Notes: generated by a model from the letters alone, not told the origin. DNA of 64,000 bases from an uncultured Candidatus Saccharibacteria bacterium (GCA_964360585.1 CAYHXC010000003.1:18113-82112); one strand, 5' to 3'. Positions 4,712 through 57,801 are shown, numbered from the stretch's first letter. Translations and numbers: made by a program.

Positions 4712-5235
4712 TTTGTAGCGCGCCAGAAGTCATGATTTTGAGGAATATTTTCGTGATGTTCGAAGGCGTAAAATACGCTCTCGAAATTGACGCTGGGGGG
4801 ACATTGAGAAATCAGATCCCCCAAGTTGTCGTGTGCCACGAGACATGTTGAATTACCCCGAAAAGTTCGGAGTAGAGATCTTCTACTCCTTCCCCGTCGA
4901 GAAGGATTGGAAAAGGTTGATCGAGGAGGCCAGGGAAACTGGCCAGGAGGCGGATGAAGAAGTGATACGATCTTCATCTCCTCCTTCGGCAACTTCGGTT
5001 GCCGAAGACTCGAACGTCGTGGCTACGGAATTTGTCCTAGTTGATGTCGAAGAGTGTCACGATGTTGAGGTGGAATTCCTCGCGGAAGGAACCCCCTTCA
5101 AGAGCATCCCGCGATAGCGAGCAAGAAGGGAGGGTTATGAAGTACAATGCACCACTCGCATTCGCGAAAAAGAAGTGGGCTCACCCTGGGGCTAAAGGGT
5201 AGCCATGAAGGTAAGGCTGGAATCCTCTAATTTAC

Positions 5236-5276
5236 GAGCCGATATTCTATTTTGGATATCGGCTCTTCTCATTTCT
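5236..5276 (+). terminator. 10-bp-stem hairpin (GAGCCGATAT..ATATCGGCTC) followed by T-rich tract
   Basis: perfect 10-bp inverted repeat with 10-nt loop then TTCTCATTTCT; lies between ORF 4833..5117 and the 3' end of groEL. Confidence 0.4.
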
Positions 5277-5326
5277 ATAATCACACAATTTGACTGATCA
5301 TTCTCTCGTCTCAATTTTGTTTAATT

Positions 5327-7006
5327 TTAGTAACCACCCATCCCTCCGCCCATTCCTCCGGGCATTCCCCCACCACCTTCTTTTTCCTTTTCTGGAATTG
5401 TGGTCAGCGCCGCGCCAATCGTGAGATAGGTCGAAGCTACCGAGACAGAAGAAACTAAAGCGGTCTTTGTTACTTTCAAAGGATCGATGATTCCAGCTTC
5501 CTTGAGGTCGCCAATTTTGTTCGTAATGCCATTGAATCCTGTCCAGCGATCTCCTTTCGCGCGCTTCTTCAGTTCGGCCATGATCGGCTCGGCCGCCTCA
5601 CCGCTATTCTTGAGGATTGCTCGAAGCGGCGACTCAAGTGTTCGCATCAGAATTCCATGCGCCGCCATTGCGACTGAATCACTCATAGTTTTCTGATGAG
5701 CTGGCTTCATTTCTTCATATCTCTCCGTCATTTCAAGCGAAACGTTGAAGAGCGCGATACCGCCGCCCGGCACAATTCCCTCTTCCATGGCCGCTCGGGT
5801 GGCCGCGACTGCGTCCTCAACGCGTTGCTTTAACTCTTTCTGAGCAGTTTCCGTGGCTGCGCCAACTTTGATCACCGCGACACCACCGGACAATTTGCCC
5901 AATCGCTCCTGTAATTTTTCTTTGTCGAAATCTGAGTCGGTTTTCTGAATCTGCGTTTTGATCTGTGCCACACGGCTATCAATTTCTTTCTTATTGCCTT
6001 TGCCATCAACAATCGTCGAAGTGTCCTTTCCGGAAACGACGCGATGGGCGTGTCCCAAATCTTCCAAACCAACGTTCTCCATCTTCTTCCCAAGATCATC
6101 AGATATAAATGTAGCGCCAGTTACAATCGCAATATCCTGAAGCATCTCCTTCCTACGATCACCAAACCCTGGTGCCTTGATCGCCAAAACACTGAAGATG
6201 CCGCGCAACTTGTTCAAAATCAAAGTGGTCAAAGCCTCGCCTTCAACCTCCTCAGCGATAATGACCAACTCCTTTTTCCCACTCTGCACAATCTTCTCGA
6301 GTAAAGCTAATATCTCCTGAATCGAAGAGATCTTCTTATCAGTTACCAATATATACGGATCTTCCAAAATGGCTTCCATCCGCTCCTGATTGGTAATCAT
6401 GTACGGAGAAACGTAGCCGCGATCAAACTGCATACCTTCGACAAATTCATACGAGTTGGCGAGTGTGTTCGAATCATCAATCGTCACCACACCATCCTTG
6501 CCAATCTTGCCCATCACTTCGGCGATCAAGCCGCCAATTTCTGCGTCCTTGGCCGAAAGCGTAGCCACCTCTTTCACTTTCTTATTGTCGTTGATCAGTT
6601 CGCGCTGACTCTCGAGCGCTTTAATAATTACTTCGCTTTCTTTCTTCAGTTCTTCGGCGAGATGAATAACGTTAAACCCTTTTTCGCTAATCGCTTTTTC
6701 TCCTTCGTCGATCATCGCCTGGGCCAAAACAACCGAAGTCGTCGTACCATCGCCAACATTGTCGTTGGTCTTGTCCGCGGCCTGCTTCACAAACTCAGCG
6801 CCGAGATTTTCATACTTGTCTTCGAGCTCAACCTCTTTGGCGACAGTCACACCGTCAAAAGTGACCTGCGGCGCGCCATACCCTTTTTCGATCACCACTG
6901 CTCGGCCGCGAGGACCAAGGGTCATCTTCACCGCTTCGGCCAACTTATCAATTCCCTTCTTCATGGCCGCGCGGGCTTCTTCGTTAAATAAAATTTGTTT
7001 TGCCAT
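5327..7006 (-). CDS. groEL: chaperonin GroEL (Cpn60)
   Basis: 559 aa; MAKQILFNEEAR..GPRGR.V..EK..GAP..T.DGVTVAKE..L.D..EN.GA..V...A.KTND.AGDGTTT..VLAQA; C-terminal GGM repeats. Confidence 0.97.
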   Translation of the reverse strand: MAKQILFNEEARAAMKKGIDKLAEAVKMTLGPRGRAVVIEKGYGAPQVTFDGVTVAKEVELEDKYENLGAEFVKQAADKTNDNVGDGTTTSVVLAQAMIDEGEKAISEKGFNVIHLAEELKKESEVIIKALESQRELINDNKKVKEVATLSAKDAEIGGLIAEVMGKIGKDGVVTIDDSNTLANSYEFVEGMQFDRGYVSPYMITNQERMEAILEDPYILVTDKKISSIQEILALLEKIVQSGKKELVIIAEEVEGEALTTLILNKLRGIFSVLAIKAPGFGDRRKEMLQDIAIVTGATFISDDLGKKMENVGLEDLGHAHRVVSGKDTSTIVDGKGNKKEIDSRVAQIKTQIQKTDSDFDKEKLQERLGKLSGGVAVIKVGAATETAQKELKQRVEDAVAATRAAMEEGIVPGGGIALFNVSLEMTERYEEMKPAHQKTMSDSVAMAAHGILMRTLESPLRAILKNSGEAAEPIMAELKKRAKGDRWTGFNGITNKIGDLKEAGIIDPLKVTKTALVSSVSVASTYLTIGAALTTIPEKEKEGGGGMPGGMGGGMGGY

Positions 7007-7046: not shown

Positions 7047-7409
7047 TTACGACTTTTTTAATTTTTTCTTAAAACCTCCTAACTGATTCGCAACACTTTC
7101 CAGCTTCCGGTGAATATCATCAAACTGTCCCTGGGTAATTAATTTATTATCTTTCAACACATCAATCGCAGCCAACGTTTCATATATTGATCCCATTGAG
7201 ATATTGAAGAAACGGTTCATATCTTTATCCGAATCTTTTCCACTTCCTTCTGCGATATTCAAAATTATAGAAAGAGCCGCTCGCGTTACCTGATTTCCTA
7301 AATCGAACTTATACTCTTGGGGCAATCCTTTAACCATCCTCAAAATATCTGCGAACACTGATTTTGATTCCTCGTACACTGGCCATCCTAAAAACCTAAA
7401 CTTATTCAT
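7047..7409 (-). CDS. four helix bundle protein (TIGR02436-type; 23S rRNA intervening-sequence protein family)
   Basis: 120 aa; FRFLGWPVYEES..F...I......LP.EYKFDLGNQ..RAALSI.LNIAEGSG..S.KD...F..I..GS..E....I family pattern; sits between groES and groEL. Confidence 0.7.
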   Translation of the reverse strand: MNKFRFLGWPVYEESKSVFADILRMVKGLPQEYKFDLGNQVTRAALSIILNIAEGSGKDSDKDMNRFFNISMGSIYETLAAIDVLKDNKLITQGQFDDIHRKLESVANQLGGFKKKLKKS

Positions 7410-7444
7410 GTCGCTTCTCGTTATACGTTTCCAGTTTTTAGTTA

Positions 7445-7999: not shown

Positions 8000-10900
8000 C
8001 TAGGATGCTGGAACAAGCCAGATAAAGTTCCCTGCATCATCTTTTTCGTTAAGATTTATCACCCACACTCGCGACCAGGTATGATCCTGCACAATCAAAT
8101 TATCATTCCGATCAAAGGCTACTTCGCCCGGCGCGCCCATGGGCAGTCGAATAACGGCGTCGGGATTTTGTCCCATCACATAGGTTCCATCGCTTTTCTT
8201 AGCTAAGGGATTTCTATAAAGGAAAAGCTGGGTGGTGGCTCGAGTTCCGTCATTCGCCCATCCAGTGCCATCAGTTGTCACAACCATCTGGTTCTGACTA
8301 TCAAAAGCTACCGAAATCGGAGAATTTATTTTATACGGCACCTCGGAACAATTCGCCGGTTGGGTCAGAGAGTTGCTCACGAAAACTTTACGAGCGGAAA
8401 TATTTGGGAAGAGTGTCGAAGCACGTTGAATATCTTCGCCCATAAAAACGGTGATACGGTTATTCCCATGACACTCATAGTTATTTTCGATCGCATATAA
8501 ATTTCCGAGACGGTCAAACTCAATCCGACCAACGTCACACAAACTATCTGCCGAAGGAGCTCCCTTCGCTGTCCAATCATACTGTTGATTGTGATTGCAC
8601 TGAACCGATGTCTTGTTCGGTTGTCCGATAACAAGATCTACTAATAACTTTTTACTGTATTCATCGTAGTTACTCACCCGCAAAATACGGTTGTGATCGC
8701 GATCATTAATCCACAATGTATTAGTTGTCGGATCAAACTCCGGCCCAGTTTCTCGCATCGAGTACTCCACTTCCACAGTGGGATTATCTTTCCAATAGAG
8801 CGACAACTCCTGACGAACTAACTGAGGGGCCAGATTAGGATAGAGCTGATATAACATCAGATGACCGGTGTGCAGATAGGTCGTCCAGAGTCTATTTTTT
8901 TCATCTACTGCGAAAGAGAGTCGGGCGCCAGGATTATAAACGGATTTTCCTGAAGCTCCCGACGGAGCGGAAAGATAGTTTGGCCAAACCATAATGCGCT
9001 CTCGATCTTTCACGATGAGCTGATCTCCAGATACTGTCATCCCTACTGCTTCAGACAAGGCCGACAGACTGGGAATATTGGCAACAGAGAATGCTTGATC
9101 AAAGTCAGCAAAGCATCCCGCAGTATTTCCTCGTAGCTGATACCGATGCACGCCTTTATCGCGCGCTCCCCACTCATCAGCAATATAAACACGATCCTGG
9201 CCATCAAATCCCAATGACCCAGAAGGCCAGGTGAGCTCGTCGGCCAATGAAGCCACCACGCTACCATCATTTCGGATAAGCAAAGTTCGCCCTCCTCCTG
9301 GACGACTGTGCTCATTGATCCACATTGTCCCTTCCACACATTTCCCGTCCAACATCCTATTGAAGGCGAGCGTACTTGCGGTGAACCAGTATCCGGGAAC
9401 GGTGGGATATATGACCTTCCGTGCGGCCATGCCGTTTGAGAAAGGAGGCGTGAAAACCAAGATACGAACTTCAAACGCATGTTCGTGAAACTCATCGAGT
9501 ACATACAGTTCGCCAGTCGCGGGATTGATTCGCGCCAGTGTTGGATTACACATTTCGGTGAGTTCCGCGCGACGGAAGCAACCCTCTAGGCCACGACTAC
9601 TAAAACTTCCATTTTTTCTACCCAGCACCAGATCAGCTTCTTTTTGACCGGGAAGAAACCGAAGAACACGATTATTAAAAGTATCCGCCACCCAGACATT
9701 CCCTTCGTCATCAACTGAAACACCTCTCGTCGAGACATGACCAGGAGCGCCAGCGCTCGTCCAGAGCGATTCTGCATCGGGAGTTGTCCTGCCTTGATTT
9801 ACTTTATTCCCGGTGAAGTTGGCCTGACCCCACACAAAATCAGCAACTGTGTCCCCTTTTCCATTTGTTTTACTAACACTATAAGGTTCGTTGTACTTCA
9901 GCACGCGATTATTCATTACGTCCACAACATACAAATTTCCTTCCTTATCAACATCGAGATTCATGTGCTGCCACTGCTCAGCCACGTTGGCTCCGATTGG
10001 AAACTGGAGCAAGCACAAAGACGAAGCCGTAGGAGATTTATAAAAACCAAGATTGTTATCGCCATTACAAGCCGAAGAACCAAAATCCGGCTGGCCGAAA
10101 ACAAGGTTGGCGCCCGTAAGGGTTCCGCTGTATCCCAAGATACGACTATTACCGCTATCTAAAACATAGACTTTATTCGGATTGGAACTCCGATCTACCG
10201 CCACACCGGGAGTGTGATAGGTTGATCCATTTGTCGGCTGCCACCACGCGGTTTCCTTATAACTTCTTTGTCCGAATACTTTGAGCGTCTTCACACACTG
10301 TCCGTAAAAATTTGTTTCGCCGGAAGGACAGTCCCGCGCGCTATCTTGTAACATACCGAGCGTAGAAATTTTCCCCTGACTTTGAGTCGGTACATTTGGG
10401 ATGGGAAGAGGAGCTGGGTTAGAACTGTCAGAAATTGTGACGCTATTTTGTGCCGGATCCAGAGGAGAAGGCCCGATACATATTTGAGTGCAATAAATCT
10501 CCAGGGAGTATACGCCCGCTACAACAGAATTTGGAATGGTCACAAACTCACTTCCATCATTAGGAGTATTCCATATCAGGGGATATGTACCTCTTATCGC
10601 TCTATCGTTTAAAAGAATATTTACTCGAGCACTATTTCCTCCACCGCCTCCTGTCCAACGCACTTCATAGCTTCTATTTCGCTGCCATCCTACACTCCCA
10701 AGTGGAGTTACTAATCTTAATTTCTGAATCGGCTGGATTGAAGAGGAGGTGGACGCGATCGCAGGAGCCGGAGAAGAAGATACACTAGCTATTGAAGGCA
10801 CGGTAGGCACACCCGTGGCTTTTCCGGAACCAGGGGTTTGCGGCGAAAGGGCTTCATTTACTCGTTGCCGAGTAATTGGCCCAAAGTATCCCGCGGCGGG

Positions 10901-14490: not shown

Positions 14491-14634
14491 GATGAATCCC
14501 CACACCTAATCGGGAAATATTATTAAAGAAATAGAAATCATGATGCTAACCACGTCAAAAATAAAAAGGTTGTCTATAGGGTCGAGAGCTGGTCGCATGG
14601 TTGCGACCGTTCCCGATTAGGTGTGGGGATGAAA
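14491..14634 (+). promoter_or_regulatory. SD/start-codon-sequestering inverted-repeat element, copy 1 (upstream of GT2 gene)
   Basis: left arm GATGAATCCCCACACCTAATCGGGAA (14491-14517) is reverse-complementary to right arm TTCCCGATTAGGTGTGGGGATGAAA (14610-14634), about 21 contiguous bp; right arm contains AGGTG SD and the ATG (14629); about 93-nt spacer with GGTCGCA-TGG-TTGCGACC hairpin. Confidence 0.6.
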
Positions 14635-16894: not shown

Positions 16895-17033
16895 ATGAAT
16901 CCCCACACCTAATGGGAAAAATAGATATAATAGTTGTATAATGACACACATGGTTCTGATTATAAAAGAGGCGGATAGTAACGGGAAGTTCTGCCGCTAC
17001 GCGGCGATTTCCCATTAGGTGGGGGGATGAAAA
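16895..17033 (+). promoter_or_regulatory. SD-sequestering inverted-repeat element, copy 2 (upstream of epimerase gene)
   Basis: left ATGAATCCCCACACCTAATGGGAAA (16895-16920) vs right TTTCCCATTAGGTGGGGGGATGAAA (17008-17033), one mismatch; CGGGAA/TTCCCG of copy 1 replaced by TGGGAAA/TTTCCCA on both arms (compensatory); spacer has TTGTATAAT extended -10-like box and GCCGC-TAC-GCGGC hairpin. Confidence 0.6.
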
Positions 17034-17947
17034 TTCTTATAACCGGAGGGGCTGGATTCATCGCTTCTCATATCACCGACGCTTACGTCCAAGCTGGTCA
17101 CAAAGTGGTCGTGATCGATAACCTGAATACTGGTTTCCGGAGAAATGTAAATAAAAAAGCAAAATTTTATAAAGTAGATATCCGTGATCTTGACGCAATC
17201 CAAAAGATTTTCAAAAAGGAACGCCCGGAGATTGTGAATCATCACGCCGCCATCGCTGAGGTAGTGAAATCAGTTCGTAATCCGATTCCAACGTATGAAG
17301 TGAACGTGATTGGAATCGCCAATATCCTTCTTTCTTTTGGACAGTACGGCAAAGGGAAGAACAAAAAATTTATTTTCTCCTCAACAGGCGGCGCCCTCTA
17401 TGGCGAACCGAAAAAAATCCCTGCCGCTGAAACTACTCTGGTTGCTCCCCTCTCTCCGTATGGTCTCTCAAAACAACTCGGGGAAGACTTGATCCATTTT
17501 TATGCTCGGATGTACAAGTTTGATTACTATATCTTCCGCTATGCCAATGTGTATGGTCCTCGCCAAAACCCAAAAGGTGAAGCGGGTGTAGTCGCCATCT
17601 TCGGCGGTATTATGAAACGAGGCGAAGTACCGACTATCTTCGGTGATGGTACGAAGGCACGAGATTATGTGTATGTCGGCGATATCGTGAAAGCGAATCT
17701 CGCAGCGTTAAGGAAAGGAAAAAACGTTGCGACAAATATAGGTTGGGGCAAACTGATTACCGATCAGATGATTTTCGACACCATTGCTAAAACCCTGAAC
17801 TACAAACAAAAAGTAAAATACGCTCCCTATCGTTCAGGTGAAGTTTATCGCATTTCTCTAGACGCCGGAAAGGCGCGAAGCATTCTTGGCTGGAAACCAA
17901 CCGTTACTTTAGAAGAGGGTGTCCGCCGGACACTAGCCACTCTCTAG
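17027..17947 (+). CDS. NAD-dependent epimerase/dehydratase (UDP-glucose 4-epimerase-like SDR)
   Basis: 306 aa; MKILITGGAGFIASH Rossmann; YxxxK (YGLSKQLGE); extended-SDR architecture. Confidence 0.8.
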   Translation: MKILITGGAGFIASHITDAYVQAGHKVVVIDNLNTGFRRNVNKKAKFYKVDIRDLDAIQKIFKKERPEIVNHHAAIAEVVKSVRNPIPTYEVNVIGIANILLSFGQYGKGKNKKFIFSSTGGALYGEPKKIPAAETTLVAPLSPYGLSKQLGEDLIHFYARMYKFDYYIFRYANVYGPRQNPKGEAGVVAIFGGIMKRGEVPTIFGDGTKARDYVYVGDIVKANLAALRKGKNVATNIGWGKLITDQMIFDTIAKTLNYKQKVKYAPYRSGEVYRISLDAGKARSILGWKPTVTLEEGVRRTLATL

Positions 17948-29121: not shown

Positions 29122-29394
29122 TAGAACCCATCTCAAAAATATATCAAGTCGCGTTTCGTCTGTTTTCCCGATTACGCAAGGCGCCGCTTCTCGAAGGTGT
29201 ACTTTGCGTACTCCGAGAAAGCGGCAACACAGCGTATCGGAAAAACAGACAAAACCCTTGGGGATAGGACTCCCGAACGCGATACCAGTGTCACTTCGGA
29301 GCTCAATGTGCCGCGAGCACACCTTCGTTCTTGTTTCGCGGTATCGCATTCAGGAGTCGATATCGCGACTGCTATATTTTTGAGATGGGTTCTA
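29122..29394. mobile_element. MITE-like palindromic element, copy A (22-bp perfect TIRs, TA flanks)
   Basis: TAGAACCCATCTCAAAAATATA at 29122-29143 is the exact reverse complement of 29373-29394; internal long imperfect palindrome; about 98% identical to 47338-47611; TA dinucleotide on both flanks; no credible ORF (ORF-track ORFs 29096/29113/29197 are translations of the repeat). Confidence 0.6.
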
Positions 29395-30349
29395 TGCTCT
29401 TGTCGGCTTCGATCATCTTCTTCACTCCGTCTTCAAGACTGTATTTCGGCCGCCACGAAAAGACACAGAACGTCTTGGCCATATCCGCCGCCTGACAACC
29501 ACTATCATGCGGGGGTTGTTCTAGACTACCCCAAAGAACTTTGCTTTTGGAACCGGTTTGTTTGATGACCAGATCCACAAGCTCGGCAAGCGTCACCGCC
29601 TGGCCGGAGGCGAGGTTAAATATTTCGCCTTTTTGAGCGGCGCTCTTTTCCATCGCTTCTACTAAAATCTCGATAACGTCACTGATAAAAATAAGATCTC
29701 TATTTACTGCCGGACTGGTGAGGCGAATATCCTCATTTCTCAGCGATGCACTAACTAGAACTTCCATAAGCTTCCCCCTTTCCATACCAGGTCCGTAGGG
29801 CGTAAAGATGCGAAACACCGTAATGGGTTTGCCGAAGGCATCCGCGAATGCTTGGCAGTAGAGAGAGGCTGTGAGTTTGGCTAAACCATAGGGGACCGTT
29901 GGTTCACACTGATTACGTTCCTGAAGTGGAGCTTTTTTGATCCCATACTCTAATGAACTACCGGCCTGAATGAAAAATTGGTAGTTGTCCTCACGAAGAG
30001 CCTGGAGAAGCCAGATAGTCCCAAGGGTATTGACCCGAATGAACTCTTCCGCGGATGTTTCACTATCTATGCGGGTGAGACGAGCGGCCAGATGAAAGAC
30101 GCCGCGCGGATGGAGACCGTGCAAAGCTTTCTCGACCTCTACAGGGTTCGCAATATCGCCCATGCGAACTTCTAAACTCGGCAAGAGATCCTTGATTCTC
30201 CGCACATCCGAATCTGGCTGAAGCAGGATCGCCACCCGATGACCATCACGCACCAAGCGACGTACCAGATGAGACCCAATAAAACCGGAAGCACCCGTCA
30301 CTAGAATGGGCGGCTTCATACCGTTCTCTATCTCCACATTGGTTGCCAT
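29372..30349 (-). CDS. NAD-dependent epimerase/dehydratase (extended SDR)
   Basis: 325 aa; ILVTGASGFIGSHLVRRL; YGLAKLTASLY (YxxxK); 3' end overlaps TIR of MITE-like copy A. Confidence 0.75.
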   Translation of the reverse strand: MATNVEIENGMKPPILVTGASGFIGSHLVRRLVRDGHRVAILLQPDSDVRRIKDLLPSLEVRMGDIANPVEVEKALHGLHPRGVFHLAARLTRIDSETSAEEFIRVNTLGTIWLLQALREDNYQFFIQAGSSLEYGIKKAPLQERNQCEPTVPYGLAKLTASLYCQAFADAFGKPITVFRIFTPYGPGMERGKLMEVLVSASLRNEDIRLTSPAVNRDLIFISDVIEILVEAMEKSAAQKGEIFNLASGQAVTLAELVDLVIKQTGSKSKVLWGSLEQPPHDSGCQAADMAKTFCVFSWRPKYSLEDGVKKMIEADKSIEPISKI

Positions 30350-31476: not shown

Positions 31477-32544
31477 TCAACGCACACCACCACGTAGATA
31501 CATAATTCCCGTGCGTACGAACAAGCGGATTTTTTTGAACGCGACCCAGATACGCCAGACGATGGGATAGATACCATACTTTCTGGCGAAATATACGTCC
31601 ATAAATTTTCTGTACCTCTCCCCTTTCCAGGGAGTCATCTTCACATAACGAAGATAGTCGGCATGAAATGGCATGGCTGAGAAGAAGTACCAGGGCTTGC
31701 CACCTCCCGAGTAATGGACGATGAGTGGATCGGGAACACCAAGCTTATCGGCTATATCGGTGATGAGATTGTAACGTGGTGGTAACTCGAGGCAGTCTCC
31801 CCACAGAACGATGTTCAAGGCGTCTTGGTCATGATAGGAGAGTTTGTTCGGGTGCGCCGTGATAATATCGAGAGCTTGGTCTTGGACAGCAAGGTTTCGC
31901 CAGCGTTCGACATCAACAAGCATAATCCCCGAATTAAAGTAAAACGTGGAAGTCGGCGGCGGCGTCACACCGACTGCTTGAGCGAGAGCGCGTAAGTGGT
32001 TCATCTTGTAATCCGGATCAGGATCGGCCACCACCCCCATGGTTTTACCTTGTAGATCCAGATTATAAAATTCCGCGATGTCTCCCCGGACAACCGTATC
32101 GACATCGAGGTTGATGGCCTTACGACAAGTCAGTGGAAGAATTTGACCCAAGGCCAGACGGTGATAGTTTTGGATGGGTAGTCGATAGTGTCCAGCCAGT
32201 TTATGTATAGGAACCTTACCAAAATATTCTTCGTTTGGCGTAACATACTGAATGGAAAAACCATATCGCTTTTCGAGTACATGCAACCGTTCTTTGCTCC
32301 GATCGGAAAGCCCTGAATCAATAATGTAGATGTCGATCGAGTAGTCACCCTTCTTGTTCTCAAAGAGCGAGCAGAGACAGGTGCCCAGGAGGACAGCGTA
32401 GCGATCATCACACGATAGAATAATGGGGATTGATTTCATAGCAATTAATAATGGTCCAATTATACACCCCGAAGTGACACTAAACAATCTCCCAGAGCTC
32501 ATCTCAAAAATAGATCCGTCGCGTTCATCCTCAGTTTTTATCAT
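31477..32544 (-). CDS. glycosyltransferase family 8 (LPS galactosyl/glucosyltransferase-like)
   Basis: 355 aa; IPIILSCDDRYAVLLGTCLCSLFEN...IYIIDSGLS...AINLDVDTVV (DxD) ...FNSGIMLVDVERW. Confidence 0.65.
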   Translation of the reverse strand: MIKTEDERDGSIFEMSSGRLFSVTSGCIIGPLLIAMKSIPIILSCDDRYAVLLGTCLCSLFENKKGDYSIDIYIIDSGLSDRSKERLHVLEKRYGFSIQYVTPNEEYFGKVPIHKLAGHYRLPIQNYHRLALGQILPLTCRKAINLDVDTVVRGDIAEFYNLDLQGKTMGVVADPDPDYKMNHLRALAQAVGVTPPPTSTFYFNSGIMLVDVERWRNLAVQDQALDIITAHPNKLSYHDQDALNIVLWGDCLELPPRYNLITDIADKLGVPDPLIVHYSGGGKPWYFFSAMPFHADYLRYVKMTPWKGERYRKFMDVYFARKYGIYPIVWRIWVAFKKIRLFVRTGIMYLRGGVR

Positions 32545-32813
32545 CCACCGAGGCAGGACGAGGAGACATAGGCTTTGTCTAGACTCCGAGGAGTAACGAT
32601 GGTGGTGATAAAAACTGAGAGAACCGAAGGATAGGAAGAAATGATTCGAATATGTCGTTGCTGCGTTCTCGATGTATCTTTGGATACACCTTCGAACTTG
32701 CGCCTCGTCTTCGAGTCATTTCTTCTCTATCGCGACAGGGTATATTTTTGAGATGAGCTCTTGATTGGTTAAATCCGACAGAGGAACTATAATATAACAG
32801 TACAAAATGAACT

Positions 32814-33185
32814 ATGAAAAAACTAACGGTTAGCTACGAACGTAAAGATAAGCGAGGCGCCTTCCAGGAGTATTTAAACAGTCCACTCCCATGGCGATCA
32901 ATTAATGCCGGTACCATGAAAAAAGGAGCGGTCATGGGAAATCACTACCATAAGAAATGCCTGGCAGTATTTTTCATTCTTTCCGGAAAAGCAGAAATAC
33001 TCGTCAAGGACGTACGTAAGAAATCGTCACCCGTTCGTTTTAAACTCGCTCCGACTCAGGGCGCCCTTATCTATCCGTACGAAACTCATGCCATCTGTTT
33101 CCTTCAAAAATCAACGTTTCTCCTCATGAAATCAGCAAAGTTCGATCCCAAAAATAACGATCTTTTTCTGTCGCCGTTATTATGA
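32814..33185 (+). CDS. WxcM/FdtA-like cupin (dTDP-4-keto-6-deoxyhexose 3,4-ketoisomerase-like)
   Basis: 123 aa; KRGAFQEY...MGNHYHKKCLAVFFILSGKAEILVKD...LAPTQGALIYPYETHAI matches FdtA-type cupin pattern. Confidence 0.5.
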   Translation: MKKLTVSYERKDKRGAFQEYLNSPLPWRSINAGTMKKGAVMGNHYHKKCLAVFFILSGKAEILVKDVRKKSSPVRFKLAPTQGALIYPYETHAICFLQKSTFLLMKSAKFDPKNNDLFLSPLL

Positions 33186-45620: not shown

Positions 45621-46220
45621 TTACCTGCCGGCGGTGATCATATGATCGAAGTATTCTTTAAAGTATTTCGTCATAAGGTGCATGATCGTATGATGGACAC
45701 TTTCAACAATTTCGTACTGTCCTTTTTCGGTTTTGACGAGAATCTTGGCATCAGAGAGTTCGTTCAACTTACCACCGTCAAAACCAGAGAGACCAATGAC
45801 AGGAACTTTACGTTCTTTGGCTAGCTCGACAGCTTTAATAATATTCGGCGAGCTACCAGAGCTCGAAATCGCAATCAGAACATCGGCATCCTGGAGATAG
45901 TTCTTGAGTGGACCAGCGAAGATCATGTCAAAACCAACATCATTGGCCCAGGCTGTGATTTCTGATTCGGTTGAAGGCAAGCGAATGGCTTGGAAACGTC
46001 GGTGATTCTTATCGAGGTGGTGACTAAAGACGGTCTTATTAAAATCACTAACCCAGTGAGTAGCGATAGCCAAGGAACCGCCGTTTCCGAAGACATAGAT
46101 CCGGCCGTCTCGTTCGTAGGCCGCCTCTAAAATGTTTATCGCCCGGGAGATCTCTTCGGCCGGCAGTTGGGCTAATGAGGCAGAGACTTGATCGGCAAAT
46201 TGTTTGATAAATTCTTTCAT
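45621..46220 (-). CDS. gmhA: SIS-domain phosphoheptose isomerase (GmhA-like paralogue)
   Basis: 199 aa; GRIYVFGNGGSLAIATHWVSDF...ADVLIAISSSGSSPNIIKAVELA. Confidence 0.7.
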   Translation of the reverse strand: MKEFIKQFADQVSASLAQLPAEEISRAINILEAAYERDGRIYVFGNGGSLAIATHWVSDFNKTVFSHHLDKNHRRFQAIRLPSTESEITAWANDVGFDMIFAGPLKNYLQDADVLIAISSSGSSPNIIKAVELAKERKVPVIGLSGFDGGKLNELSDAKILVKTEKGQYEIVESVHHTIMHLMTKYFKEYFDHMITAGR

Positions 46221-56145: not shown

Positions 56146-57669
56146 CCCGTAATGGTCTTAATTGTGCTCGACGGCTGGGGAATCGGAAATCACGATGCCT
56201 CCAACCCGATGCGCCAGGCCAAAATGCCGACGTTTGACTGGCTGCGCGAGCATTTTCCCATGACCAGTCTCCAGGCTTCCGGAATTTCCGTCGGTCTCCC
56301 CTGGGGCGAAACCTCAAATAGCGAGGTCGGTCACCTGACGATCGGCGCCGGGAAAGTTATTTATCAGTACTATCCGCGCATTATTCTCGGCATTCGCGAC
56401 CAGAGTTTTTTTGCGAACGAAGCCTTGCTCGGCGCCTGTGAGCATGCGCGCAAAAATAACTCGGCCGTAAATCTGATGGGGCTTCTCACTAAGGGAAATG
56501 TCCATGCTTCGCTTGAGCACATGCTGGCCTTAATCAAGCTCGTCGAAGATCAGAAAGTAAAATACAAAGTGCACATCTGGTCGGACGGCAAAGACAGTCC
56601 GCCGGGTACGTTTACTGAATTTTTCAAAGCGGTGCCTAAAGATAAACTGGCGAGCATAACCGGGCGCTACTACGCCATGGATCACGCTAAGAATTGGCGG
56701 AACACCGAACGAGCCTACCAGGGCTTCACGAGCGAAGCGGCCGAGCTCGTGACCGACGTACAACCGACGCTCGATAATTTGCGCGAACAAAAACTTTCTG
56801 AAGAATTTATTCCGCCGCTCCGTTTTGGTCCGGGCGCGCCAATCCAGGATAACGAAGCAATTATTTTTTGGAACTTCCGCGAAGATGGCGTTCGTCAGTT
56901 GACTGAAGCGTTTCTCATTCCGGACTTCTCCATGTTTCCGGTCAAAAAATTTGAGAATCTGCACATCGTCACCATGACTCGGTACGAAGATCATTTCACC
57001 GTGCCCGTGGCCTATCCGCCTGATGAAGTAAAAAATCCTCTGGGAAAAGTACTCTCGGACAATAATGTGAGCCAGCTCCGCCTCGCCGAAACCTATAAAT
57101 ACGCGCACGTTACTTATTTTTTTAACGGCTATGAAGAAAAACCCTATCCCAACGAATACCGCATTCTGATTCCCTCCCTCACTATTCCTCACTTGGCGGA
57201 TAATCCGGAGATGATGGCAACCGCCATTACCGATCGCGCCATCGCCGCCATCCAAGACCACTCCTTTGACTTCATTCTCATTAATTACGCGAATGGCGAC
57301 ATGATCGCCCACACCGGAAATTTCAATGCGGGCGTGAAGGCGGCCGAAATTATCGATCGCGAGATCGGCCGAATTTTAAAAGTTGCCTTGGCCACGCCGG
57401 CCACCGTCCTTATTACCGCTGATCACGGCAACTTGGAAGAGATGTACAATCCCTTAACCGGTCGGTACGAAACCCAACACGATCCCAATCCCGTTCCATG
57501 TTATATTTTCGGCCCCGGCCTCGAAGGAAAAAAATTTATCAACCAGGACACCTACGAAAAAGAAACGCTTGGTATTCTTTCTGATGTCGCACCGACCATT
57601 CTCCGCATTCTTGGCATCGTACCTCCGCCGGACATGACGGGGCATAATCTTCTCGAAAAACTCGTCTGA
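56134..57669 (+). CDS. gpmI: 2,3-bisphosphoglycerate-independent phosphoglycerate mutase
   Basis: 511 aa; (M)KPVMVLIVLDGWGIG..., SGISVGLPWGETSNSEVGHLTIGAG, C-terminal ITADHGN metalloenzyme motif. Confidence 0.9.
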   Translation: MGMKPVMVLIVLDGWGIGNHDASNPMRQAKMPTFDWLREHFPMTSLQASGISVGLPWGETSNSEVGHLTIGAGKVIYQYYPRIILGIRDQSFFANEALLGACEHARKNNSAVNLMGLLTKGNVHASLEHMLALIKLVEDQKVKYKVHIWSDGKDSPPGTFTEFFKAVPKDKLASITGRYYAMDHAKNWRNTERAYQGFTSEAAELVTDVQPTLDNLREQKLSEEFIPPLRFGPGAPIQDNEAIIFWNFREDGVRQLTEAFLIPDFSMFPVKKFENLHIVTMTRYEDHFTVPVAYPPDEVKNPLGKVLSDNNVSQLRLAETYKYAHVTYFFNGYEEKPYPNEYRILIPSLTIPHLADNPEMMATAITDRAIAAIQDHSFDFILINYANGDMIAHTGNFNAGVKAAEIIDREIGRILKVALATPATVLITADHGNLEEMYNPLTGRYETQHDPNPVPCYIFGPGLEGKKFINQDTYEKETLGILSDVAPTILRILGIVPPPDMTGHNLLEKLV

Positions 57670-57789
57670 CACTGAATCACAAAACGCGAACTACTTTGTT
57701 ACTGACTGCGCTTCGCCCTCGCTGTATGCTATACACCTCGGTTACGATGCTCGTCAAAGCCTCGTATTTCATCGTTTTGTGATTCAGTG
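57670..57789 (+). promoter_or_regulatory. 17-bp perfect inverted repeat (CACTGAATCACAAAACG ... CGTTTTGTGATTCAGTG) flanking an 86-bp spacer between gpmI and downstream gene
   Basis: left arm starts at the last base of the gpmI stop codon (57670-57686); right arm 57773-57789, 12 nt before ATG 57802; spacer has a reverse-oriented TTGACG-18-TATAGC promoter-like pair. Confidence 0.55.
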
Positions 57790-57801
57790 TAGAATACGAA
57801 T

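Follow-up and report, generated by a model that had tools for sequence, protein, structure and literature searches.

We find that a 273-bp inverted-repeat element in a 64,000-nt stretch of DNA (hereafter the window) from a Patescibacteria (CPR) MAG is very probably a non-autonomous DNA transposon, namely a type II MITE that shares the ends of small IS5-family insertion sequences. Autonomous members of that group are ~830-870 bp long and form their transposase from two overlapping ORFs, one for DNA binding (DUF4096) and one for catalysis (DDE_Tnp_1). The element has the traits of a MITE: it is non-coding, dispersed, flanked by TA, without strand bias, and present or absent at a syntenic site. 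It belongs to a new family of a known kind of element, whose two-hairpin core is unusually well conserved and whose host range is wide and includes CPR bacteria. The window comes from a Hainich groundwater population (well H51, 0.1-µm fraction) and holds three copies, A, B, and C, with the following features.

29122..29394, + (canonical orientation): copy A, with TA at 29122-29123 and 29393-29394 and perfect 22-nt inverted ends; fold z = -12.6
29124..29143, +: left terminal inverted repeat of A, GAACCCATCTCAAAAATATA, the presumed transposase-binding end; same as the Leptospira IS5-family ends over GAACCCATCTCAAAAA(TA)
29153..29255, +: hairpin 1 of A, from the minimum-free-energy fold; compensatory changes in 15/16 pairs
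29256..29262, +: central mini-hairpin of A, in the conserved junction AACCC-nnn-GGGATA, where columns A132-C135 and G141-T144 are nearly invariant
29263..29364, +: hairpin 2 of A, an inverted paralogue of hairpin 1; compensatory changes in 20/23 pairs
29373..29392, -: right terminal inverted repeat of A, which also encodes the end of the epimerase gene at 29372-30349 (-)
32493..32762, +: copy C, of a diverged subfamily, with terminal dinucleotides decayed to CA..TT; fold z = -10.4
47338..47611, +: copy B, with an SDR epimerase gene (47638-48702, -) on one side and a GHMP kinase gene (46217-47251, -) on the other

The 22-nt sequence TAGAACCCATCTCAAAAATATA, for which no match is expected by chance in the window, occurs there without mismatch at 29122-29143 (+), 29373-29394 (-), 47338-47359 (+), and 47590-47611 (-). 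The initial annotation had described copy A as a 273-bp unit with perfect 22-nt inverted ends, and both A and B as flanked by TA on each side; the exact matches at both ends and the TA dinucleotides seen in both copies bear this out. It had further reported a near-identical second copy with about 4 substitutions. Copies A (273 nt) and B (274 nt) do differ at 4 positions and are 98.5% identical (270/274), but the differences are 3 substitutions and 1 indel, and a third copy had been missed. This diverged copy C, at 32493-32762 with ends AGAGCTCATCTCAAAAATA, was found by a mismatch-tolerant search and an inverted-repeat scan. Its interior is ~60% identical to that of A, its fold architecture is the same, and the same sequence is carried by five other Hainich contigs. 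In searches with an nhmmer profile of the family, A (E = 5e-55), B (4e-58), and C (1e-44) are the only matches in the window, and none was found in the 10 kb to its left or the 7.5 kb to its right in the source assembly.

Both A and B lie just 3' of SDR epimerase genes, which would suit an origin by segmental duplication together with these genes. The 60-nt flanks of the two copies are, however, unrelated on both sides, with homology ending exactly at the element ends, so that such a duplication is excluded for practical purposes, as the initial annotation had argued. The downstream genes also differ (SIS domain versus GHMP kinase), and thirty relatives are found elsewhere.

All three copies are inside a sugar-nucleotide/glycosyltransferase (polysaccharide) gene cluster, A between an SDR epimerase gene and a SIS-domain gene, and C between the divergent genes 31477-32544 (-, GT8) and 32814-33185 (+). 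The right end of A supplies the last six codons and the stop of the adjacent epimerase gene, which thereby ends in ..KSIEPISKI*; with the element and one TA removed, the ORF would end in ..KSIAS*. Since homologues of this epimerase end within 2-10 residues of the junction with A, the insertion sits in a dispensable tail of the protein.

Folded as RNA, a check proposed at the outset, copy A is stable (-133 kcal/mol, z = -12.6), and DNA parameters give -73 kcal/mol (z = -10.4). The interior had been taken for one largely self-complementary palindrome, a description that the fold contradicts: a closing stem, made of the terminal inverted repeat and a short CGCG stem, surrounds two separate and independent hairpins, each ~100 nt long, and the 3-bp mini-hairpin that divides them. 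This three-part fold is obtained on either strand and with RNA or DNA parameters (z-scores -10 to -13). The internal loops of hairpin 1 are purine-rich (GCAAGGCG / CAACAC and CGAAGG / CCGAGAAAG). Hairpin 2 is distantly paralogous to the reverse complement of hairpin 1, and it is this relationship that makes the element look palindromic; because of the resulting pseudo-two-fold symmetry, the family profile matches each copy both ways, with about twice the score in the canonical orientation. A polarity nevertheless remains, which can be written as CGCG-TT-(hairpin 1)-AA-CCC...GGG-ATA-(hairpin 2)-ATAT-CGCG.

We collected relatives with the pattern CATCTCAAAAATA-N(215-245)-TATTTTTGAGATG in one scan each of a genome and a metagenome collection, which returned 10 and 22 loci, respectively, and 30 distinct elements. 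The pattern demanded an exact 13-nt core at both ends and a spacing of 215-245 nt, leaving seven outer positions free, so that the invariance of the core and the uniform family length (266-282 nt) are partly a matter of construction. By record title, the hosts are Liptonbacteria, Harrisonbacteria, Saccharibacteria, and Paceibacterota (all Patescibacteria), two Gammaproteobacteria MAGs, one of which holds three copies, and one Blastocatellaceae (Acidobacteria) MAG. Identical 275-nt copies are present at two distinct loci (L015 and L020). The Blastocatellaceae element (L002, 3729-4010; 282 nt) has the same ends and an unrelated interior, which folds into a closing stem around one short and one very long hairpin; it is a separate subfamily with only the ends in common with the rest. 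The combination of shared ends with a different, hairpin-rich interior suggests that the enzyme needs the ends and that compact folding has been repeatedly favored.

No conserved neighboring gene or transposase was found beside the elements, the only recurrent "proteins" being translations of the repeat itself. Any one reading frame is open in at most 9 of 27 members, and frames shift between copies; with no frame conserved, the ORFs over copy A are not genes, as had been stated from the window sequence. Orientation relative to the neighboring genes is unbiased (11 same and 11 opposite on one side, 10 and 6 on the other). The whole 273-nt unit has no BLAST match in plasmid and phage collections; in viral contigs, the gapped two-end pattern has no match, and the single-end pattern has 8 solitary chance matches without a partner. 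A search of the literature for the repeat sequence returned chance matches in mammalian papers only, and this MITE family, which is spread over several bacterial phyla, has apparently not been described so far.

The predicted fold is strongly conserved. In an oriented alignment of 27 members with 68 predicted pairs, compensatory double changes are seen in 44 pairs, and 93.7% of cells hold standard pairs, compared with 73.2% in column shuffles and 35-45% when partners are slid by 1-3 columns. The covariation score is 0.506 against 0.138 in shuffles, none of 500 of which reaches the observed value. In the 27 members, 99.4% of the outer helix, which has 19 pairs, is paired, up to four Watson-Crick pair types occur at one position in the basal stems of the two hairpins, and the internal-loop sequences CAAGGC, CAAC, CTCG, and GTA..TAC are among the best-conserved positions. 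The conservation of hairpins and loops is greater than a mere "filler" interior would need, and the MITE model provides no mechanism for it.

These data raise the question of whether the element is in the first place a functional structured nucleic acid (an RNA gene, a cis-regulatory RNA, or an ssDNA recognition structure) that has been copied around, with transposon-like ends as a secondary trait. The very strong covariation in both hairpins, the loops CAAGGC, CAAC, and AACCC..GGGATA kept across phyla, the fold z-scores of -10 to -13, and a mild G-U excess over A-C in hairpin 1 (19:7 on the canonical strand) speak for it. The ratio in hairpin 2 is, however, neutral (25:20), so that the counts amount to a weak strand preference at most, which is more in keeping with a constraint on intrastrand pairing that counts on both strands, or at the level of DNA, than with a one-strand RNA gene. 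Since the hairpins are reverse-complement paralogues, each strand would carry one "sense" and one "antisense" version. Rfam 15 had no match anywhere in the window at gathering score, nor a relevant one for the element even at E <= 10; no sigma-70 promoter consensus was found inside the element, only a weak terminator-like match at its right end; and no orientation bias with respect to genes is seen. The ends, moreover, are bona fide insertion-sequence ends, and the Blastocatellaceae element joins them to an unrelated interior. We thus regard structure as the primary identity of the element as improbable, and the structured RNA offered as an option by the initial annotation fares poorly on the same grounds (no Rfam match, no gene-orientation bias, a weak G-U excess).

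Another reading, which we hold to be doubtful although less so than the preceding one, is that the two-hairpin core is a functional module under purifying selection, with a four-way-junction fold and conserved purine-rich loops, recognized as folded ssDNA or RNA by the transposase or a host factor, working in either orientation and horizontally spread among Patescibacteria, Gammaproteobacteria, and Acidobacteria. If this were true, the core could be, for example, a mobile, orientation-independent module for transcript processing or termination, or a structure-dependent substrate of transposition.

The outermost bases of the family behave as a target duplication would. T1 is conserved in 22 and A2 in 25 of the 27 copies, and both mutate independently at the two ends, as expected for a duplication outside the element, whereas none of the 27 copies departs from G3 or A4, and changes at positions 5-7 are matched by covariation at the opposite end. 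A pyrimidine precedes the left TA at all 28 sites read, and the right TA is mostly followed by a purine. Most copies have TA at both ends, less conserved than the adjacent GA, and a diverged empty orthologue has a single TA. These observations fit a TA duplication; alternatively, TA could be the outermost base pair of the repeat. A longer duplication of 3 bp (YTA) or 4 bp (YTAR) was rejected, because T stands outside the left end in 8 copies while the inner C at the right end never varies, and because the Leptospira copies described below have unrelated outer bases. At one locus (L019, 1103-1385), the flanks lengthen the inverted repeat by 8 nt (CTTTTAAC|TA..TA|GTTAAAAG), so that this element occupies the middle of a target that is itself palindromic and may be a terminator or a repeat of another kind.

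The terminal repeats link the family to IS5. Insertion sequences of the IS5 family, ~860 bp long and located in Leptospira plasmids and environmental contigs, have the 20-nt end GAACCCATCTCAAAAATA as their terminal repeat. Searched alone, the 33-nt end matches Leptospira weilii plasmids at 100% over CTAGAACCCATCTCAAAAATA, in many places per record and under the annotation "IS5 family transposase"; likewise, TAGAACCCATCTCAAAAATA is a 100% match (20-21 nt) to the termini of 863-bp insertion sequences of these plasmids. One 50-kb Leptospira stretch contains six complete 863-bp copies, each with the repeat at both ends, and all six have TA..TA flanks with unrelated outer bases. The Leptospira element has two overlapping ORFs, with PF13340 DUF4096 in OrfA (1e-23) and PF01609 DDE_Tnp_1 in OrfB (3e-16), and both match NCBIfam NF033580 "IS5 family transposase". 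OrfA has 4,254 homologues at E <= 1e-15. Environmental insertion sequences in which OrfA is 62-68% identical (L061, L062/L063, L065-L074) have ends of the form GAA(C/G)(C/T)(C/T)ATCTCA(A/T)AAA with c-TA..TA-g/a flanks, and this set includes two insertion sites of one element and one marine (Tara) element; in a further one (L064) the ends have diverged more, to GAAGTTGTCTCATAAA / GAAGCTGTCTCATAA. TA flanks every environmental copy and all six Leptospira copies on either side, preceded by C/T and followed by G/A, which is the pattern of the MITE. Within this material, one Leptospira weilii plasmid (pLiSL16, L060) has at least two variants of the 863-bp element, with OrfA 85% identical, and a large inverted duplication of gene content.

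Similarity between the MITE and these insertion sequences ends after ~20 nt, which makes the family type II rather than type I; sequence comparison points to shared ends only, and descent from the IS5-family elements is not implied. In size, two ORFs, and short flank, the autonomous elements resemble the IS427/IS1031/ISL2 groups of the IS5 family, for which the ISCaa elements serve as a comparison (PMC3196728). Searches by tblastn found no partner transposase in the 64-kb window, in 17.5 kb of additional flank, or at the ~30 MITE-bearing loci.

The initial annotation had assigned the element to the IS630/Tc1-mariner type, in which a DDE_3-type transposase recognizes the ends and duplicates TA. 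TA on both sides in a C/T-TA-G/A context does recall IS630, which prefers CTAG (PMC2170065 and PMC2229807 for general properties of that family), the center of the repeat is A-rich, and there is a weak HTH ORF at 739-948. IS5-type elements share the TA flanks, however, so that the flank does not discriminate and the identity of the terminal repeat decides: every autonomous element found with these ends belongs to the IS5 family, with DUF4096 and DDE_Tnp_1, and the suggested search for an IS630/Tc1-like transposase with matching ends found none. The HTH ORF, which had been held to be of that general type, has only sub-threshold HTH_23/28/29 similarity, is 28 kb away, and has no matching repeat nearby; as it falls below Pfam thresholds and is absent from the gene calls of the source assembly, we rejected it as a transposase remnant. 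An IS630-type origin is accordingly very unlikely.

Occupied and empty sites are found in Gammaproteobacteria, where the element lies between cytochrome b561 and YkuD genes in three contigs (L004, L009, and L046), and the same gene order occurs without it in two others (L047 and L048, with intergenic gaps of 196 and 81 nt). Alignment of the empty L047 site, ..GCGTATT-TA-GGTTG.., with the occupied ..GTGTATT-TA-(element)-TA-ATTTC.. fits TA duplication, as far as can be read from orthologues that are only 65% identical in protein. At this locus, 15-17 nt lie between the end of the element and the b561 start codon downstream, and the promoter of that gene must therefore be within the element or beyond it. 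In the window genome, the 98.5% identity of A and B at unrelated sites suggests recent movement. The nearest homologue of the epimerase beside A is 48-50% identical, and with no closer relative an empty site was not obtained for the window copies. Contigs of the same population either carry the identical element or are broken at it, and such breaks are frequent, as expected for a repeat. In another group of contigs, L012 compared with L024, L029, and L008, the element and one flank are 99.9-100% identical and the other flank differs from the last base of the element on, either by recombination at the repeat or through an assembly chimera.

At the b561 site, the element is in opposite orientations in L004 (2667-2945; also in L046) and L009 (2168-2436): ~7 kb of flank is 90% identical in the same orientation, and the element is 90% identical in the opposite one. 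Either recombination between the ~30-bp inverted ends flipped the interior, or two insertions took place at one and the same TA. Such inversion in place, which is also reported for Correia elements (PMC10969869), together with the position of all three window copies in a polysaccharide gene cluster, might indicate an inverton, a segment flipped by a recombinase between its inverted repeats to regulate polysaccharide genes. The two orientations are, however, found in species diverged by 10% and not within a population, while the Hainich contigs all show a single orientation, and we therefore take the inversion as a rare event and not as a switch. No recombinase gene is nearby, the interior has no promoter consensus, and a single rare recombination between 30-bp inverted repeats suffices as an explanation. 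We therefore give an inverton even less credence than an IS630-type origin.

The preferred reading of a type II MITE with IS5-type ends suggests the following mechanism. An IS5-group transposase, either encoded at another place in the genome and acting in trans or present at an earlier time, would bind both ends, excise the 270-nt unit, and insert it into a TA within a Y-TA-R context, duplicating the TA. The two hairpins would be kept by selection on intrastrand pairing, most likely because active master copies need a compact fold that joins the ends, or because the fold aids persistence in the host. A transcript crossing the element would carry a perfect duplex of ~20 bp and two long hairpins, followed by a U-run, and given the pseudo-symmetry it would look much alike in either orientation. 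By analogy with Correia and ERIC elements (PMC2229807, PMC10969869), the duplex and hairpins might act in either orientation as RNase III-sensitive or terminator-like punctuation between the flanking sugar-nucleotide genes.

The closest known systems each share part of this picture. Small two-ORF IS5-family elements (IS427/IS1031/ISL2-like; NF033580) have the same ~20-nt repeat GAACCCATCTCAAAAA.. and TA in a Y-TA-R context, but these insertion sequences, of which the 863-bp Leptospira weilii element is an example, have no sequence in common with the non-coding, 270-nt window element beyond the ends, and, by eye, they lack subterminal hairpins comparable to the two conserved here. Correia/NEMIS elements of Neisseria are also TA-flanked MITEs with ~24-bp terminal repeats, found within and between operons, whose transcripts form long duplexes; they are reported to be RNase III substrates and invertible in place (PMC2229807, PMC10969869). 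They are, however, 107-155 bp long and confined to Neisseria, contain promoters and a site for IHF, and have no parent among known insertion sequences, whereas the window element has 270 nt, two hairpins, no promoter consensus, hosts in several phyla, and ends that match a known insertion-sequence group. For RUP of Streptococcus pneumoniae, the parent, IS630-Spn1, was likewise assigned by terminal-repeat similarity and TA target (PMC2229807), but RUP is 107 bp long with a single stem-loop, and its parent is of the IS630 and not the IS5 type. Type II MITEs such as Chunjie (178-235 bp) similarly have only the terminal repeats in common with the autonomous element (PMC10969869), are of a similar size class, and insert into operons without obvious disruption. 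An interior whose structure is conserved across phyla with compensatory changes, as in the window family, was not found described for the bacterial MITEs compared.

For annotation, these results remove three spurious ORFs from a polysaccharide locus and explain an altered epimerase C terminus; for assembly, they explain contig breaks in the source population. They connect a MITE family found in environmental bacteria, among them those of groundwater, with a specific group of transposases, so that its mobilization can be tested by experiment. The unusually strong compensatory evolution of the hairpins makes the family well suited to learning whether secondary structure in a MITE is favored because it aids transposition or because it acts on the transcripts of the host. 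Operon expression in reduced CPR genomes could be influenced by insertions of this type that separate co-directional biosynthetic genes. The interest of the family is modest unless the hairpins prove functional.

The window and its surroundings contain further repeats and genes of note. A second inverted-repeat family, at 14496-14630 and 16899-17028, has 21-nt arms, ATCCCCACACCTAAT(C/G)GG(G)AA, around AT-rich, non-homologous interiors of 88-93 nt, with TATAAT in one of them; the downstream gene has a possible start codon right where each unit closes with ..GGGGATGAAA, and the units may represent a further MITE or a promoter cassette. An 86-nt spacer separates the arms of a perfect 18-nt inverted repeat at 57669-57790 (ACACTGAATCACAAAACG), which is unrelated to the MITE. 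About 7 kb to the right of the window, a reverse transcriptase (RVT_1) adjoins a bAvd gene (L057, 13027-14424), likely a diversity-generating retroelement in the same genome. On the left (L054), a free-standing LAGLIDADG_3 gene and two 23S_rRNA_IVP-family genes lie at 5023-6000, 8980-9345, and 17000-17362, the first two outside the window and the third at about window position 7050-7410; gene content of this kind is typical of CPR genomes.
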